From: a bacterium | GTDB lineage: Bacteria; RBG-13-61-14; DATKZS01 | Assembly: GCA_963674965.2 (NCBI GenBank) | Contig: CAXXFL010000006.1 | Span: 128,001-192,000, forward strand | Direction of reading: 5' to 3' | DNA length: 64,000 bases | Shown here: positions 57,053 through 64,000 of the stretch, one piece after another | Layout of the letters: the number at the start of each line of letters is the position of its first letter | How positions within the stretch are numbered: position 1 is the stretch's first letter | Position numbers and translations under genes: made by a program | Notes under the pieces: generated by a model | What the model saw: only the letters and a program-made list of their open reading frames with translations | Told to the model about the DNA's origin: nothing | Database searches by the model: none

Positions 57053-58588
57053 TTAATCGGAGATCTCGAAGAAGACTATCATGCCCTTTTGCGTTTCAGT
57101 TTCGGCGATCGGTTTTAAGCTGTATTTCTTTTTAACCTCCTCCTCCATTTCCTTGAAATAGGGACTGGTAAGAGGGCCAATGTCCGAGAAATATATCCTA
57201 CCCTTTGAAAAGTCCAGAGGCGTTTTCGGGTCGGGCCTGAGGAGCATGTCGGTGGGCGCGCACCTGGCCCCGATGGTGGTGGAAATGGCGGAGGGAAAGG
57301 CGGCGAAATAAAGCGCGTCCTTTGGCAGCTTGTCTTTCATCTCCAGGAGAAACCGGTACTCCCGCTCGCTTTCGGCGCGGAAAGGCTTCTGAGCGTTGGG
57401 TATCCCCGGGATAATGAGAGCGGCCGCGGCCAGCGACAGGGCCACGAGGACGGGGCTGTACTTCCTTTTAAACCCGCCCGCCCAATCGATGGCCGCCGCC
57501 ATGAATCCGGCCAGGCCCGGCGCTAGAAGGAGCTGATATCTTTGCAGGTCGTAGCGGCTCGAGTCGACGTTGATATAAAAGGCGTAGACCAGGAGCATGC
57601 CGAGCATATTGGCGAAGAGGCCGGCCAGCAGGGCTGGTCGCTTTTTCACGAGCACGGCCGCTCCCATAAGGATGAGGGCCGGATAGGCCAGGGGAAGAAG
57701 GTCCCCTCCCATCCAAAAGGACATGCCGCCCAATAGCGGAACGCCGGGGGCCTTCTGGCGAAACGAGCTATAGGCCCCGAACCCCGCCAGGGCCTGCATA
57801 ACCGCCGGCAAAAGGAAGAGACCCAGCCAGAGGTAGTGCTTTCTTTCGAACTTGAAGGGATTTCCCCGCCGCCATTCCTCCAGGGCCCCGAGGATTACGG
57901 GCACGGCCAGGGCCGAGGCCACGCTCTCGAGACGGAACGTCCCGGCCAGGCCCACGGCCGCTCCCCCCGCCAGGAACAGCCCGTCGTTCCTGGTTTTGAC
58001 GAAGGACACGCAAAGGCCCGAGGCCAAAAGCACGGCCGCCATGGCCCCCGGCTCCATGGACGTTCCTCCCGACATGCGAAGATGGAGGGGCCAGGCCGAG
58101 ACCAGCAAGGAGGCTATAAGGGCAGTCGAGCCCCGAAAGCCCAGGGAGCGGACGAAGAACCAGGCCGCCATAACGCCCAGGGCCCCCAGTATGGCGTTCA
58201 GCCCATAGGCGGTTTCCTCCCTTTCCCCCGCCAGGACAAAGCCCGCGGCGAGCAGGGAATGGAAAGCGGGGGGCCACTTGGGCGCTCGGCGTATCCTGGT
58301 ATCATGGTCGCCGGCAACGATGGTCTCACCGAAGCGACCCGTGTGGCGAAGGTTCTCCGCCAGCTCCAGGTGAAGGAACTCGTCGAAGTAAACGTTATGA
58401 GTGTGGTAAACCCAGTATTGCCGGACGGCCCAGGACAAAATAATGATCGCGGCCAGAGCGATAAGCTCGACCCTGCCCGCCTGGATGAACTCCCTCAGGG
58501 CGGCTCGTTCCCGGATGGTAAAATAAATGACCGAGAAAATCAGCGCGGCGATGAAAAAGGGCGCGCCGTGTATGATCAGGGGGGACAA
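57053..58588 (-). CDS. GT-C (ArnT/PMT-like) membrane glycosyltransferase
   Basis: Polytopic; YFDEFLH loop, KWPP, SMEP, FRLE, QRY. Confidence 0.7.
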   Translation of the reverse strand: MSPLIIHGAPFFIAALIFSVIYFTIRERAALREFIQAGRVELIALAAIIILSWAVRQYWVYHTHNVYFDEFLHLELAENLRHTGRFGETIVAGDHDTRIRRAPKWPPAFHSLLAAGFVLAGEREETAYGLNAILGALGVMAAWFFVRSLGFRGSTALIASLLVSAWPLHLRMSGGTSMEPGAMAAVLLASGLCVSFVKTRNDGLFLAGGAAVGLAGTFRLESVASALAVPVILGALEEWRRGNPFKFERKHYLWLGLFLLPAVMQALAGFGAYSSFRQKAPGVPLLGGMSFWMGGDLLPLAYPALILMGAAVLVKKRPALLAGLFANMLGMLLVYAFYINVDSSRYDLQRYQLLLAPGLAGFMAAAIDWAGGFKRKYSPVLVALSLAAAALIIPGIPNAQKPFRAESEREYRFLLEMKDKLPKDALYFAAFPSAISTTIGARCAPTDMLLRPDPKTPLDFSKGRIYFSDIGPLTSPYFKEMEEEVKKKYSLKPIAETETQKGMIVFFEISD

Positions 58589-58600
58589 GCTATCGCCTCG

Positions 58601-60730
58601 TCACTGGATATAGCCCAGGGCCTTAAGCTGCTTGACCATTTGCGGAGACAGGTTCTGCTCCTCCGGGACGGTATAGGGCGTCTCGTCCATCCAGGCCTTG
58701 AGCTTGGCCTCCATTTCCATGGCCAGGCCGGGGTCCTTCGAGATCAGGTCGTCCTCCTCGTTCCAGTCGGCTTCCAGGTCGTATAGCTCGGAGGGATAGT
58801 CTCCGCCGAAGGTCTGCATGAATTTTTTGCCGTCCTCCACCAGGGCGTACTGGGGAAGCGACAAATAGGGGCGAGGAGGGTCCTCCCGATGCGTGGGCAG
58901 CATGCACCGGTCCATGACGGCCCGGCCTTTTCTTTGTCCTCCCTCGATCAGGGCCCGAAGGCTCGAGCCCTGTGAGGGAAGGTCCTTGACGCCGAGAACG
59001 TAATCGTACACGGTGGGGGCCACGTCAACCGCGCTGACCACGTCGTCCACCTCGAGGCCGCCGGGCAACTGGCCGCTCTTGGTATCTCGGCCATAGGATA
59101 CGATCAGGGGCACGTGGACGATGGCGTTATACAGGAGTCCGCCGTGGCCGTAGGCGTAACGGACGGGTCTGTCCTGGTAGTCGGCGAGGGACTCTCCGTG
59201 GTCCGCGATGACCACGTACAAATTGGGCGACTGGGGCCTGGGCTCGAGGGCCTCGGCGTACTCGAGGAGCTTTCCCACGTAGTAGTCGGTATAGAAGATT
59301 TCCCCGTCGTAAAGGTCTATCCGGTCCTGGATTTCCTCCGGGCTATAACCTTTCTGGCCGGGCTCGAGGAAGCCGTTTCCACCCAGGGCCCTGGGAAATT
59401 TCTTGCTCGTAAACTTCTCGGTAAAGCCCTTGTGCGGCATGTAGGGCATATGGGGGTCGAAAAAGTGGACCCAGATAAACAGGTCACGGTCCCGGTATTT
59501 CCTGAGCTGGTTGGCCGCCCGCCTGAAGGCGTCCCGCGCCGAGGTCTGGTCGGCCCGAAAGGCGGTCCTCGCCCCGGCCTCGGGGTCGCGAAACCAGGTC
59601 ATGGCGCCGCTCGACTCGTCGAAGCCCTCGATGCCCATGTCGAAAGGCATCAGCCTCGGCCTCGAGGTGACGGCCGAGGTGGTGAAGCCTCGCTCGCCCA
59701 GTATCTCGGCCATGGACTTGACGTTGCCCGTCACCTTCTGGAAGAGCCGGGCCAGGCCGTGGGTCCTGGGGTAATAGCCGGTCAAGATCGAGGCGTGGGA
59801 CGGGTCGGTTACGCCCATGGGACAAAAGGACTTTTTAAACAATACGCCCGAGGCCGCCAGCGCGTCCAGGTTGGGACTGGTCTTCCTTTCATAGCCGTAG
59901 CAGGAAAGATGGTCGGCCCGGACCGTGTCCAGGGTGATGAGTATCACCCGGTTCCTGACCGGGGCCTTGGGGTTGGACGCCGAATAATCCGAATAATAAC
60001 CCAAAACAGAAGCGGCCAGGGCGATGAGGATCGACGCGTACGTCGAGTAGCGCCGGAATTTTCCCGCGCCGCCGGGCGCGTTCCACTTGGCCAGGATCAG
60101 CCACCACAGCGCCGCGCCCGCTACCAGCCCGATACCAACGTGACGGAACATAGGCTCCGTGATGAATGAATCGACCTGCCTGAGAGGAAACGTGACCAGG
60201 GCCGACGCGATCAATAGATACGCCGACTGCCGCGCCGCGGCGATCGCCTTCTCATCAATAATGGACCCGACCCGCCCGGACAATAAATCGAAGGCCATCC
60301 AGAAGCCGTAATGAAGGCCCCCCGAGATGACCGAGCAAAGAATGGTCAAGGCCAGTCTGGTCCCGAGCCCGGGCACGAGGTAGTAATAGTGAATGGAGAA
60401 TATCACCCCGGCGGTCGCGCCGGCGGCCACGCCCAGTCCCGCCCACCTCCGACCCGGATCGTCCAGGTCCAGGCAGGCCAGGGCCGCAAGGCCGCGGGCT
60501 TTCCCGATGATAAAGGCCAGGAAGGTCGAGGGCTCGCGCCGTACGGCGTCTCTTGCGACCCAAAGTCCCGTGCCGATCCACCAGGGCTTGATCCACTCGC
60601 TAAGAGATATCTTGATCCCCGCCACCACCCATTTGTGATCTCCCGTGAACCAGACGGCCATGGCGGAGAAAAAGAAAAAAAGACCCAGAAGCCTGAGTAT
60701 TATTCCCGCGACTTTTCTTGTTTTATTCAT
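58601..60730 (-). CDS. Membrane-anchored sulfatase-like hydrolase/transferase
   Basis: N-terminal TMs, ITLDTVRADHL, TDPSHASILTG, WVHFFDPHMPY, YDGEI, ADHGE, ELYDL, LKALGYI. Confidence 0.88.
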   Translation of the reverse strand: MNKTRKVAGIILRLLGLFFFFSAMAVWFTGDHKWVVAGIKISLSEWIKPWWIGTGLWVARDAVRREPSTFLAFIIGKARGLAALACLDLDDPGRRWAGLGVAAGATAGVIFSIHYYYLVPGLGTRLALTILCSVISGGLHYGFWMAFDLLSGRVGSIIDEKAIAAARQSAYLLIASALVTFPLRQVDSFITEPMFRHVGIGLVAGAALWWLILAKWNAPGGAGKFRRYSTYASILIALAASVLGYYSDYSASNPKAPVRNRVILITLDTVRADHLSCYGYERKTSPNLDALAASGVLFKKSFCPMGVTDPSHASILTGYYPRTHGLARLFQKVTGNVKSMAEILGERGFTTSAVTSRPRLMPFDMGIEGFDESSGAMTWFRDPEAGARTAFRADQTSARDAFRRAANQLRKYRDRDLFIWVHFFDPHMPYMPHKGFTEKFTSKKFPRALGGNGFLEPGQKGYSPEEIQDRIDLYDGEIFYTDYYVGKLLEYAEALEPRPQSPNLYVVIADHGESLADYQDRPVRYAYGHGGLLYNAIVHVPLIVSYGRDTKSGQLPGGLEVDDVVSAVDVAPTVYDYVLGVKDLPSQGSSLRALIEGGQRKGRAVMDRCMLPTHREDPPRPYLSLPQYALVEDGKKFMQTFGGDYPSELYDLEADWNEEDDLISKDPGLAMEMEAKLKAWMDETPYTVPEEQNLSPQMVKQLKALGYIQ

Positions 60731-60838: not shown

Positions 60839-62485
60839 CTACTTATCGAACTCCGACTCGGAGAAGACGATGGCCTGGAACCTCTCGAGGACCGCGTCGT
60901 CTCTTTTCCAGCAGTTCGGGTCCATTACCCCGGCCTTGCGGCATAAATTGGAAAGGTAGGCGTCATGGTCCCAGCCCTGCTCGATGGGCACCTGGGGCAG
61001 GAACACGCCCCTGGCCCGGCCCAGCGTGATCAGGACCCCGTCACGGCCCACCTTCACCTCCTCCGGGCTTTGGCATCTCTCGATAGGAGTCAGCACCGAT
61101 ATCTCTATCTCCAGCTTCTTAAGGTCCTCGGGCGTAAGGGGATGCATGAAGAAGCGGGCGTCGTGAATGGCCGCGTCCACCGCGCGTCGCTGAACGCAAA
61201 GATAAAGAGGCTCGTTCGGTATGATAGTGCCGATGCAGCCCCTCAAGTCGCCCTCGGTCTTGAGCGTCACGAAGGCGGCCCCGATCGAGCGAAGGGACTC
61301 GCTTTTAGTTTCCATGGTTGGAAGGTCTACTCTTTTTACGGCGGCCTCGGCGAAGGCCCGGGCCATCTCGAGTAACTCCTTTTTCTCTTCGCCCGTTAAG
61401 TGAAAGCCTTTTGGGGACGGAGCGCTCGCGTCGCTCGCGGGACCAGGCGCGGCTTCACTTTTGTCTTCTTCATCCAGGATAAAAGCCGCCGCCCCGTAGC
61501 CAACCACCCTCGAGCGGTCTCCGGTGGCGTCCCCACTGTCGGCGTAGTGCAGCGTTTTGACCACTCTTCCCCCTCTCTCCTTGAAAAGACGCATGAGGGT
61601 CACCACGGGCAGGCCGCCGCAAATGGGACGGGTCCGGTCCTTCACGCCCCTGGCCACGGCCTCGACGTCCATGGACTCGATCGTCTCGAGGGTCTTAAGG
61701 TCCACGGGCTTCGTCTGCTCGGTCCCCTTATAGGGGGGATAATTGCCGTGGGACATGTCGGTCGAGGCGACGAATACCACGTCGTCGCCGGGAAAGGTCT
61801 CGTCAAGGACCTTGGCGAAATCGGCGGCCCGATCATCGGTGAGACCGCCCATCATCACCACGTTGATTTTGAGTCCGGGGCCGGCGACCGTTTGGATAAA
61901 GGGAATCTGGACCTCGAGCGAATGTTCCTGGCTATAGAAACGGTCGTCCGAGACGATCCAGTCGCGTGAGGCAACGAGCTTTTTGGCCGCCTCCCGGTCC
62001 ATCTCGACCTCGCCCAGAGGAGTGCGGTAGGCGTCCTTGTCCAGCACGAAGACCCCCTCGAGGGGGGAGCGGTGGGAAGGGCCGAGGATGACGAAGCGGG
62101 AGGGACGAGCCGGGACCAGGGCCTTATAGGCGTAAGCCGCCACCGGGCCGGAATAGCGGTATCCAGCGTGAGGGACCATGATCCCGAACACGCGTCCCTT
62201 TATTTCGGGCGCGGGAGCCAGGTCGAGGAAGCCCTTGATCATGGAGCCAAGCTCATCGGGGCCGGCGGGATAAAAAGAACCCGCCACGATGGGAGACTGC
62301 ACCGTCCTGGCGGTGGGAGCTTTTTCCGGTTTCGAGGTCACGGCGGGCGCCTTGGCTTCCATGGCCCGAGAGCTTTCTCCTACGCGTTCCTTGTCCTTGC
62401 ACCCCCCGGGACCGACAAGGGTAGCCAAAAGAAATATCGAGACGATGCCAAACGGTACTTTCTTTGTCATCGATCGAGAGATCAT
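60839..62485 (-). CDS. amrB: AmmeMemoRadiSam protein B (MEMO1) - protein A (AMMECR1) fusion with signal peptide
   Basis: VAGSFYP, PHAGYRYSG, GPSH, EHSLEVQIPF, STDMSH, ICG, VVGY; then AFVTL, LRGCIG, DARF, EISVLT, GVFLPQV, LCRKAG. Confidence 0.92.
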   Translation of the reverse strand: MISRSMTKKVPFGIVSIFLLATLVGPGGCKDKERVGESSRAMEAKAPAVTSKPEKAPTARTVQSPIVAGSFYPAGPDELGSMIKGFLDLAPAPEIKGRVFGIMVPHAGYRYSGPVAAYAYKALVPARPSRFVILGPSHRSPLEGVFVLDKDAYRTPLGEVEMDREAAKKLVASRDWIVSDDRFYSQEHSLEVQIPFIQTVAGPGLKINVVMMGGLTDDRAADFAKVLDETFPGDDVVFVASTDMSHGNYPPYKGTEQTKPVDLKTLETIESMDVEAVARGVKDRTRPICGGLPVVTLMRLFKERGGRVVKTLHYADSGDATGDRSRVVGYGAAAFILDEEDKSEAAPGPASDASAPSPKGFHLTGEEKKELLEMARAFAEAAVKRVDLPTMETKSESLRSIGAAFVTLKTEGDLRGCIGTIIPNEPLYLCVQRRAVDAAIHDARFFMHPLTPEDLKKLEIEISVLTPIERCQSPEEVKVGRDGVLITLGRARGVFLPQVPIEQGWDHDAYLSNLCRKAGVMDPNCWKRDDAVLERFQAIVFSESEFDK

Positions 62486-62682
62486 GCCTCATCCTCCTTG
62501 CCCGGCTCCAGGCGCTCGTAATGGTCGGCCTCCACGAAGGAAACGGTGGAGACGGGCCCCTTCGGAAAGGAGGCCATGTCGGCCGCGATCCCCAAAAGCC
62601 CGACGGCCGTCGCCGCGAAGCCCCTGCGGGACCACCTAAGCCGGCATTTTTCCCCGGAGCCTTCCTTGCGTTTCTTTTCCAT
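62482..62682 (-). CDS. Small protein with twin-arginine-like signal (SRRGF) and EADHYERL motif
   Basis: Fills the amrS-amrB gap exactly: starts 1 nt after the amrS stop and overlaps amrB by ATGA. Confidence 0.65.
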   Translation of the reverse strand: MEKKRKEGSGEKCRLRWSRRGFAATAVGLLGIAADMASFPKGPVSTVSFVEADHYERLEPGKEDEA

Positions 62683-62683
62683 G

Positions 62684-63673
62684 TCAATTCCACCTTCCAG
62701 CGGCCGCCTTTCCGCAATAAGGGCATCGGCCGTTTTTCAGGTTGTACTCGAGTATGGCGTATCCCATCCGTTTTATCAGGAGTTTCCCGCAGCCGGCGCA
62801 GTACGTGTCTCCTCCCCCGGGGACGTCGACGTTGCCGACGTACACGTGTTTCAATCCCTCGCCGAGCGCCGCGTCCCTGGCCTTGACCAGGAAGTCCTTG
62901 GGAGTGGGCGGAAGATCCATGAGCTTGTACTGGGGATGGAACCTCGAGAAGTGAAGAGGAGTTTCAACCCCGGTTTTTTCCGCGATCCAGGCGCACATCT
63001 TTTTGATCATGTCCAGGTCGTCGTTCAAGGTGGGCACGACCAGGTTGGTCAGTTCCACCCATACTCCCTCCTCGGCCATGACCTCGATGGCGCGGAGGAC
63101 CGGATCGAGCCGTCCCGAGCATATTGTCCGGTAATACTCGTCGCTCATGGCCTTTAAGTCCACGTTGGCCGCGTCGGCGTGGCGGCAGAGTTCCCGCAGG
63201 GGCTTCTCGTTGATGAAGCCGGCGGTGACGAGTATGTTTTTAACGCCTTTCTCGGAGGCCAGTTCCTGGCAGTCGCGGGTATACTCGAAAAAGGTGATGG
63301 GCTCGGAATAGGTATAGGCGATCGAGCGGCACCTCGAGCGCTGGGCCGCCTCGACGATTTTCTCGGGCGGGGCGTCGATGACCCGGCCGGGGTCGGCGTC
63401 CTCCGGGTTGAGTTGGCTTATGCTCCAGTTCTGGCAGAACTTGCAGTGCAGGTTGCAGCCCGCCGACGCCACGGAGAAGCACCTGGTCCCGGGAAGGAAA
63501 TGGAAGAGGGGTTTCTTCTCCACCGGATCGTAGGGATGGGCCGACAGGGGCTTGCCGTATACCAGGGTGACCAGTTTGCCCTTGTAATTCAGACGCGATC
63601 GGCAATCCCCCCGCTGGCCCGGGGAAAGGACGCACTCGCGCGGGCACAGAAGACACCTGACCTTGCCGCTCAT
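62684..63673 (-). CDS. amrS: AmmeMemoRadiSam system radical SAM enzyme
   Basis: CLLCPREC, DPVEKKPLFHFLPG, GCNLHCKFCQNW, AYTYSEP, ANVDLK, PLHFSRFHP, YVGNV, CAGC...CPYC. Confidence 0.95.
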   Translation of the reverse strand: MSGKVRCLLCPRECVLSPGQRGDCRSRLNYKGKLVTLVYGKPLSAHPYDPVEKKPLFHFLPGTRCFSVASAGCNLHCKFCQNWSISQLNPEDADPGRVIDAPPEKIVEAAQRSRCRSIAYTYSEPITFFEYTRDCQELASEKGVKNILVTAGFINEKPLRELCRHADAANVDLKAMSDEYYRTICSGRLDPVLRAIEVMAEEGVWVELTNLVVPTLNDDLDMIKKMCAWIAEKTGVETPLHFSRFHPQYKLMDLPPTPKDFLVKARDAALGEGLKHVYVGNVDVPGGGDTYCAGCGKLLIKRMGYAILEYNLKNGRCPYCGKAAAGRWN

Positions 63674-63978
63674 CGGCGGTCCTCCTTAACGGGCTCCCAG
63701 TGGTCCGCCTTGATGAGGCTCAGCCGCCCCTCCCGCTCGAGGGACTCGATCATCTCGATATCAACCTTTCCTCCCGAAGCGACGTCTAGTTCCTCGGGCG
63801 CGGTAAAGACCACGAGGAAGCCAAGAATAATAGCCGCCGCCAGGGCGAGAATAAATTTACAGTCGTCCGCTTTCAATCGGGCCCCCAAGAAAGATATATT
63901 AGCATTCATGGCGGGCGATACAATGGGCCGCTCGCGCTTGGGTGATTTCCGAGAAAAGAGACCGCCGGTCATATTCAA
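63670..63978 (-). CDS. Small single-TM protein ending in a KADHWEPV motif
   Basis: One TM helix; ATGA overlap with amrS. Start uncertain. Confidence 0.6.
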   Translation of the reverse strand: MNMTGGLFSRKSPKRERPIVSPAMNANISFLGARLKADDCKFILALAAAIILGFLVVFTAPEELDVASGGKVDIEMIESLEREGRLSLIKADHWEPVKEDRR

Positions 63979-64000
63979 ACGCCGCTTTCCGGGCTGGAAA

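Follow-up and report, generated by a model that had tools for sequence, protein, structure and literature searches.

Two mini-proteins beside a short-form AmrS radical SAM enzyme resemble its detached leaders and suggest Tat escort and membrane docking

AmrS is the radical S-adenosylmethionine (SAM) enzyme of the AmmeMemoRadiSam trio. In the bacterial DNA described here it lacks the first strand of its family, and two small open reading frames (ORFs), one on each side of amrS, encode mini-proteins that, judged by their homology, are very probably detached AmrS leaders: one of the twin-arginine translocation (Tat) type and one of the membrane-anchor type. Both ORFs are almost certainly real genes. 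The arrangement suggests that AmrS, an iron-sulfur enzyme, may leave the cytoplasm with an escort and dock on the membrane. The window under study is a stretch of 64,000 nucleotides (nt) of contig CAXXFL010000006.1 (GCA_963674965.2); all coordinates refer to it unless a locus is named, and the unit discussed lies on its minus strand, at the window end. This unit runs from the upstream mini-protein ORF (63670..63909) through amrS (62684..63673; 329 amino acids) and the downstream mini-protein ORF (62482..62682; 66 amino acids) to a fused amrB-amrA gene (Memo-AMMECR1; 60839..62485). The Memo and AMMECR1 families extend to humans, and we know of no function assigned to the trio.

The enzyme matches NCBIfam TIGR04337 with 377.9 bits (cut-off 220) and the Pfam family Radical_SAM (PF04055) at 8.9e-20; the only Pfam domains found in it are Radical_SAM and Fer4_12. 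The cysteines of its CxxxCxxC motif (C73, C77, and C80) are invariant in 13 orthologues, and AmrA (AMMECR1) and AmrB (Memo) adjoin it as one fused gene. The TIGR04337 match spans profile positions 10-333 of 349 and leaves positions 1-9, the first strand, uncovered, in agreement with the original prediction that the usual N-terminal segment is missing; the protein begins only five residues ahead of its first cysteine. Loci for comparison were drawn from 41 related genomes (35 with a match) and from the 80 most similar public loci. A simple pattern places the aromatic motif of the first strand in frame before the first cysteine in 50 of 111 AmrS frames. The window AmrS and all 15 of its orthologues (L005-L019; 49-71% identity), by comparison, start within a few residues of that cysteine.

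Long-form AmrS proteins (TIGR04337; e.g., loci L020, L104, L107, L049, and L093) share the enzyme core (44-60% identity to L020) and likewise have exported Memo/AMMECR1 partners. Their chain opens with a leader, which is a Tat signal in some and a hydrophobic anchor in others; then come a short helix, an L-S-L element, a strand with the motif E-A-x-aromatic-aromatic, and the cysteine-rich start of the core, the motif standing 3-5 residues before the first cysteine. In the window, by contrast, genes other than amrS encode the leader and the first strand, and amrS is flanked by one leader of each type. An AlphaFold2 model was made from an 89-row alignment for L020, a Tat-bearing long relative that is 50% identical to the window AmrS (mean predicted local distance difference test score, pLDDT, 95.2; predicted TM-score, pTM, 0.92), and order in its chain begins near residue 20. 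The motif is modeled with confidence as one strand (28-31) of a hairpin, and its partner, strand 35-38, stops at the first invariant cysteine; the missing segment is thus a strand in the cis form, as had been proposed. Short AmrS opens at the second strand of this hairpin, which places the split in the turn between the two strands. The separate pieces are homologous to contiguous parts of the cis protein, and the break lies between structural elements.

The PDB holds no AmrS structure that a sequence search detects. The closest solved fold to the AmrS core is pyruvate formate-lyase activating enzyme (3cb8_A; Foldseek E 1.9e-13, target-normalised TM 0.81), and phmmer relates the two sequences at E 5.8e-8. 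This closest relative in fold and sequence (3cb8, 3c8f, 8fo0) is unlike AmrS in having neither the four-cysteine N-terminal hairpin nor the C-terminal cysteine pairs, and it is a cytoplasmic, single-chain enzyme. Two long forms from Lentisphaerota (L098 610-1500, plus strand, and L112 217-1100, plus strand) carry a fused DsbD_2 (CcdA-like) membrane domain (PF13386; 6e-14 and 1.5e-13, respectively) before the L-S-L element and the motif.

The downstream mini-protein has the features of a Tat-like signal followed by an AmrS strand. A twin-arginine motif, S-R-R-G-F (62617..62631; residues 18-22), which resembles S/T-R-R-x-F-L-K, leads into a moderately hydrophobic h-region (residues 21-39) with a mean Kyte-Doolittle value of 1.49, lower than the 2.81 of the helix in the upstream mini-protein. 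R19 is invariant in 21 orthologues, and four of 21 family members match Pfam TAT_signal (PF10518; best E 1.5e-5). The tail (62497..62544) consists of a V-S-F element and the strand motif E-A-D-H-Y-E-R-L; K62-D64 coincide with the ribosome binding site of amrB-amrA. A hidden Markov model (HMM) of the motif with 16 columns, which a script built from the tails of L004-L019, iterated twice, and ran over the six frames of 111 loci, scores this tail at 16.1 bits, and its A52 and Y55 are invariant in the 21 orthologues. The protein has no match in Pfam or NCBIfam. When its family is compared by hhalign with 18 Tat-bearing cis AmrS N-termini, cut just before the cysteine strand, the two profiles match with 96.9% probability (E 2e-10) over 51 columns that run from the twin arginine to the strand motif. 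The genome also encodes TatC (213.5 bits).

The family of the downstream protein is widespread. A search with the single 66-residue sequence found only the sequence itself, owing to a word-index limit, and a profile of 21 downstream proteins was used instead; at E <= 1e-3 it matched 192 of 1.84 billion cluster representatives. Among the 150 matches listed, all but one are 46-114 residues long. Of 21 matches that were read, 19 are mini-proteins of this kind and two are N-terminal fragments of cis AmrS; members of ten looked-up clusters are nameless or called only "hypothetical protein". The top match, a protein of 2,981 residues (P0002) without a single matched stretch, is probably a compositional or repeat artefact.

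The upstream mini-protein is built on the same plan with an anchor in place of the Tat signal. Its start, ATG 63909, was picked by alignment with 16 orthologues and yields 79 amino acids; it is the more likely conserved start, as judged from the sequences, than an alternative TTG at 63978, which would yield 102 amino acids (63978..63670). A predicted transmembrane helix (63799..63855; residues 19-37 of the 79-residue form) has a mean Kyte-Doolittle value of 2.81 over 19 residues. Three K/R residues lie on its N-terminal side, and one K/R and five D/E residues lie on its C-terminal side; from this sequence we infer an N-in, C-out orientation. The tail (63673..63732) comprises the end of a short helix, an L-S-L element, the strand motif A-D-H-W-E, and then K-E-D. 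Its motif scores 15.6 bits with the HMM, ends 17 nt before amrS, and aligns to the cis segment that forms the bridge and strand 28-31 in the long-form model. Like its counterpart, the protein has no match in Pfam or NCBIfam; by hhalign its family matches eight anchor-type cis AmrS N-termini with 95.8% probability (E 8.3e-9) over 64 columns, which span the helix, linker, L-S-L element, and motif. The expected signal types, Tat-like on one mini-protein and a transmembrane anchor on the other, are thus both found as cis leaders of long AmrS. The upstream and downstream family profiles match each other with 85% probability (E 6e-6) over the 20 motif columns only. In two relatives of the same family, L007 (2478-2777, minus strand) and L008 (170-469, plus strand), the module of helix, L-S-L element, and motif is doubled in tandem within the upstream mini-protein.

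The junctions of the unit are tight, as originally described. The upstream ORF and amrS share an ATGA overlap, a 1-nt gap separates amrS from the 66-residue ORF, and a second ATGA overlap joins that ORF to amrB-amrA; such overlapping start and stop codons suggest coupled translation of the mini-ORFs and their neighbors. AAGGAGG ribosome binding sites, read from the sequence, stand 7 nt before the ATG of amrS (63681..63687) and 7 nt before that of amrB-amrA (62493..62499). The original prediction had both mini-ORFs ending in the missing AmrS segment followed by a shared K-E-D. The strand motif stands; K-E-D does not belong to the peptide motif, because these codons near the end of each mini-ORF coincide with the AAGGAGG of the next gene, i.e., a Shine-Dalgarno sequence read as codons.

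Both mini-ORFs recur beside other short amrS genes, as the original prediction would have it, and they keep the same positions in many phyla. Among the 16 loci L004-L019, a one-helix upstream ORF ending in the motif is present in 15 (it is absent in L014). Fourteen of the loci have a downstream twin-arginine ORF that terminates in the motif; of the remaining two, L014 is masked in this region and L018 runs into its contig end. Across the 111 loci, the motif HMM gives 63 matches of at least 9 bits. Of these, 25 lie immediately upstream of amrS and 24 immediately downstream of it, 13 are in cis, and one is on the opposite strand. For the downstream gene, an automatic screen for a small Tat-like ORF covered the short-AmrS loci with at least 450 nt downstream (n = 40). 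It flagged 32, of which L014 (masked) and L045 (spurious) were discounted; with four added by eye (L041, L044, L047, and L105), a Tat-like mini-ORF is found in 34 of 40. Only two of 46 cis loci were flagged in the same screen, both for unrelated proteins, which leaves no genuine case.

The mini-ORFs also evolve as coding sequences. The proportion of nonsynonymous differences (pN) is below that of synonymous differences (pS) in all 11 orthologue pairs compared. In the closest pair of upstream ORFs (L007/L008), pN is 0.18 and pS is 0.52, and the ratio of nonsynonymous to synonymous substitution rates (dN/dS) is 0.24, vs 0.10 for amrS of the same two loci. Within the window, the match of the tails to cis N-termini alone is not significant: with an HMM built only from 49 cis N-termini, the two tails come no higher than second and sixth among the window's 1,883 six-frame segments (E 1.1 and 3.5). 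The significance of the tails comes instead from their recurrence across loci and from the profile-profile matches.

The two tails of one locus share a mean motif identity of 0.46, compared with 0.35 across loci and 0.34 between upstream orthologues, and one of 5000 shuffles reached the observed within-locus value, kin not being independent in this comparison. Such likeness is expected if both tails fit their cognate enzyme, and gene conversion would give the same; it is a small supporting sign. A different Tat-signal mini-protein follows the short amrS of Planctomycetota, Verrucomicrobiota, and Lentisphaerota (L044, L046, L047, L050, L055, L057, L059, L069, L076, L078, L079, L097, L099, and L105). 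A Y-P-G box is conserved in it, its tail ends in W-x-G or L-A-G, and the E-A-aromatic motif is lacking.

Short forms of AmrS cluster on a tree of the enzyme core. The tree is a quick maximum likelihood estimate (LG+G4) of 110 rows from which the N-terminal region was excluded, with support given only by the Shimodaira-Hasegawa-like approximate likelihood ratio test (SH-aLRT); it omits L001, L003, and the duplicate L035, and four rows were re-labelled short by hand. The window amrS falls in a 5-row clade (support 99) within a 37-row clade (SH-aLRT 97), in which 35 of 37 rows are short forms. A second short group is an 8-row Omnitrophota clade, all of whose members are short. The short/cis label needs at least five changes on this tree; when three labels are counted, the short label needs six, vs a shuffled mean of 35.7.

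On balance, these findings are probably best explained by a split enzyme that is escorted through Tat and docked on the membrane's outer face. Each mini-protein tail would add its strand to the exposed first strand of short AmrS; from the sequences and the L020 model, binding of the tails at this hairpin site is quite likely. The 66-residue downstream protein would bind folded, cluster-loaded AmrS in the cytoplasm and carry it through the Tat translocase as a hitchhiker, and such co-export has slightly better than an even chance of being its role. The upstream mini-protein, inserted with its tail outside, would hold AmrS at the outer face of the cytoplasmic membrane beside a lipoprotein-like AmrB-AmrA; its proposed part as an outer-face tether is an evenly balanced proposition. 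Tentatively, and with low confidence, these steps can be joined into a relay, in which the Tat mini-protein clips on by strand addition and exports AmrS, and the anchored mini-protein then takes over and parks the enzyme by Memo-AMMECR1 and, in other lineages, by an outward-facing flavin or iron-sulfur donor. The first strand would in that case be a portable, exchangeable docking tag.

Where the system works is indicated by indirect evidence, which points outside the cytoplasm. The AmrB-AmrA fusion matches TIGR04336 (248.2 bits), TIGR04335 (159.1 bits), and Pfam Memo and AMMECR1, and its N-terminus has a hydrophobic stretch (residues 11-29) followed by Cys 30, in the manner of a signal or lipoprotein-like sequence. 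Where a Memo gene was found at short-AmrS loci, its product begins with a signal or lipobox-like N-terminus in 19 of 20, many with a lipobox-like cysteine. In Omnitrophota, an upstream-type tail ends three proteins with a flavin mononucleotide (FMN)-binding domain, FMN_bind (E 2e-16 to 4e-15), and a fourth carrier has FMN_bind, Fer4_5, and ferredoxin domains and an extra last helix before the tail. FMN_bind domains face outside the cytoplasm (e.g., in RnfG, NqrC, and NosR), and therefore the tail and its partner should lie outside too. These carriers resemble FMN-binding membrane proteins of the NosR/NapH-like and RnfG/NqrC-like kinds, whereas the window's upstream protein has no redox domain and consists of helix, linker, and tail only. 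Since the tail carriers of Omnitrophota hold FMN_bind, the tail would link AmrS to an outward-facing electron carrier there; by analogy, the dock probably also brings AmrS to its electron donor.

Several observations weigh against export and docking of AmrS. Radical SAM chemistry requires SAM, a reductant, and oxygen-sensitive clusters; we know of no radical SAM enzyme that works outside the cytoplasm and of no SAM supply for one there. Several cis AmrS proteins of Omnitrophota and Elusimicrobiota (L063, L081, L090, L093, L095, and L108) have leaders like those of the general secretory (Sec) pathway, with no twin arginine; such leaders are hard to square with the export of an iron-sulfur enzyme that is already folded. 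The window's own 66-residue protein has no Pfam TAT_signal match even at E 10. Family-wide, the charge bias at the upstream helix is weak (47 K/R on the N-terminal side vs 41 on the C-terminal side). Six of the 40 screened short-AmrS loci have no adjacent Tat mini-ORF (L014, L033, L045, L060, L073, and L092); among them L014 is masked, L033 is really a cis form missed by the pattern, and L060 is possibly frameshifted. No upstream mini-ORF is seen in the loci of Planctomycetota type, and their downstream tail differs. Finally, two tails that fit one AmrS site would compete, and in two relatives the upstream protein contains the motif twice.

In a rather unlikely alternative, the detached leaders no longer serve AmrS. 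Short AmrS would then act without a partner, either in the cytoplasm or at the membrane's inner face, and the tails would bind another partner (e.g., AmrB-AmrA) or be in decay. The Planctomycetota-type downstream proteins, which have lost the E-A-aromatic motif, are in keeping with this, as are at least four short-AmrS loci with no adjacent mini-ORF (L045, L060, L073, and L092). The split and the mini-ORFs have nonetheless been inherited together through the 37-row and 8-row clades, over several phyla, and the mini-ORFs are under purifying selection. The start and stop codon overlaps suggest that their translation is coupled to that of their neighbors, and the tails of one genome are more alike than orthologous tails.

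It is less probable still that the mini-proteins are substrates, an alternative that the original prediction had also raised. In that case they would be precursors like those of ribosomally synthesized and post-translationally modified peptides (RiPPs), and AmrS would modify the aromatic or histidine residues of their tails before or after membrane targeting. Short genes with a conserved C-terminal motif do stand beside a radical SAM gene, and the enzyme of closest solved fold, 3cb8_A, acts on a peptide loop. Against this, the motif belongs to the enzyme chain in long relatives, where it is modeled confidently as an ordered strand rather than a free tail, and the full length of each mini-protein, with its leader, aligns with cis N-termini. 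No SPASM/twitch or PqqD-like peptide-recognition domain of RiPP maturases is found in AmrS by Pfam, and the tail also ends large FMN-binding redox proteins, which are unlikely precursors. The mini-proteins are probably not substrates, and this alternative is disfavored.

An artefact has a negligible probability. It would mean that the upstream ORF and amrS are one gene, broken by misassembly or read through by programmed frameshifting, and that the downstream ORF is open by chance. The region is GC-rich with long open frames, and the upstream stop overlaps the amrS start (ATGA), but two Logan contigs (two runs of a single sample, perhaps the one from which this DNA came) span 62400-64000 with no differences and no gaps, and the same split occurs in 15 relatives with varied junctions (e.g., the motif of L010 ends 65 nt before amrS, vs 17 nt here). 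AmrS also has its own AAGGAGG site and ATG, no slippery heptamer is seen at the junction by eye, and the downstream ORF family has its 192 cluster representatives. The varied junctions rule out a simple frameshift error, and both misassembly and programmed frameshifting are rejected, in keeping with the original view of separate frames.

Escort of AmrS by the downstream mini-protein would be a variant of Tat hitchhiking. Hitchhiker pairs described in the literature include the hydrogenase small subunits HyaA/HybO with their large subunits (Rodrigue et al. 1999, cited in PMC10924467), the small hitchhiker subunit of a flavin adenine dinucleotide (FAD) glucose dehydrogenase (PMC6719666), and PaoABC (PMC4273604). 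The likeness is that a cofactor-loaded passenger without a signal would exit bound to a twin-arginine partner: AmrS is signal-less, and just 1 nt separates its gene from that of a co-encoded candidate carrier with a Tat-like signal. In the known pairs the carrier is a folded subunit that has cofactors or a role in its own right, whereas here it would be little more than a signal peptide and one or two beta elements of its passenger. The system further differs from the known pairs in its passenger, a radical SAM enzyme, and in the presence of a second copy of the anchor type.

A link of AMMECR1 by gene neighborhood to a radical SAM enzyme and a dioxygenase-like protein appears in a 2007 paper (PMC2034487). 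In the titles, abstracts, and passages covered, nothing was found on short or split AmrS or its mini-proteins, nor on export of a radical SAM enzyme. A term search for "radical SAM" gave no hit in a 2026 review of Tat (PMC13673990), and in the passages covered of PMC10924467 the term names only a neighboring gene. If the proposed escort is real, strand complementation would serve Tat escort here in a natural system of minimal size. With export or anchor signals on all its parts and a first strand that is a separate tag, the system offers concrete binding partners and a testable location, and two widespread mini-protein families are added.

The genome has a second AmrS on another contig (G000:C1:852610-853581; L002), of the short-leader type, which covers TIGR04337 positions 1-333 and includes the motif in its own chain. 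It falls in a separate clade of eight rows, five of which show the motif, in every case in cis, and it is flanked by genes for a NagZ-like hexosaminidase and an AmiA/AmiC-like amidase, not by amrA or amrB. In a whole-genome search, the TIGR04337 match of the window's amrS overruns its TGA stop (62672-62686) to profile position 339, with one internal stop, and this is taken as alignment overhang.

About 108 nt after amrB-amrA lie two further genes on the minus strand, which may be envelope-modifying genes of the amrS unit. The first (58601-60730) encodes a 709-residue membrane protein with a Sulfatase-family domain (PF00884; 2e-35), in which a threonine seems, by eye, to occupy the usual position of the cysteine or serine nucleophile. 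The second (57053-58588) encodes a PMT_2 glycosyltransferase-like membrane protein. A role of AmrS as maturase of the sulfatase-family protein is unsupported, as AmrS is not a SPASM enzyme of the anaerobic sulfatase-maturating (anSME) type. At the other end of the unit, beyond the window end, lies a divergent sensor-like gene (L004 2929-3987, plus strand) with Tll0287-like, HAMP, and PAS domains, and the upstream mini-ORF is therefore the first gene of the unit.

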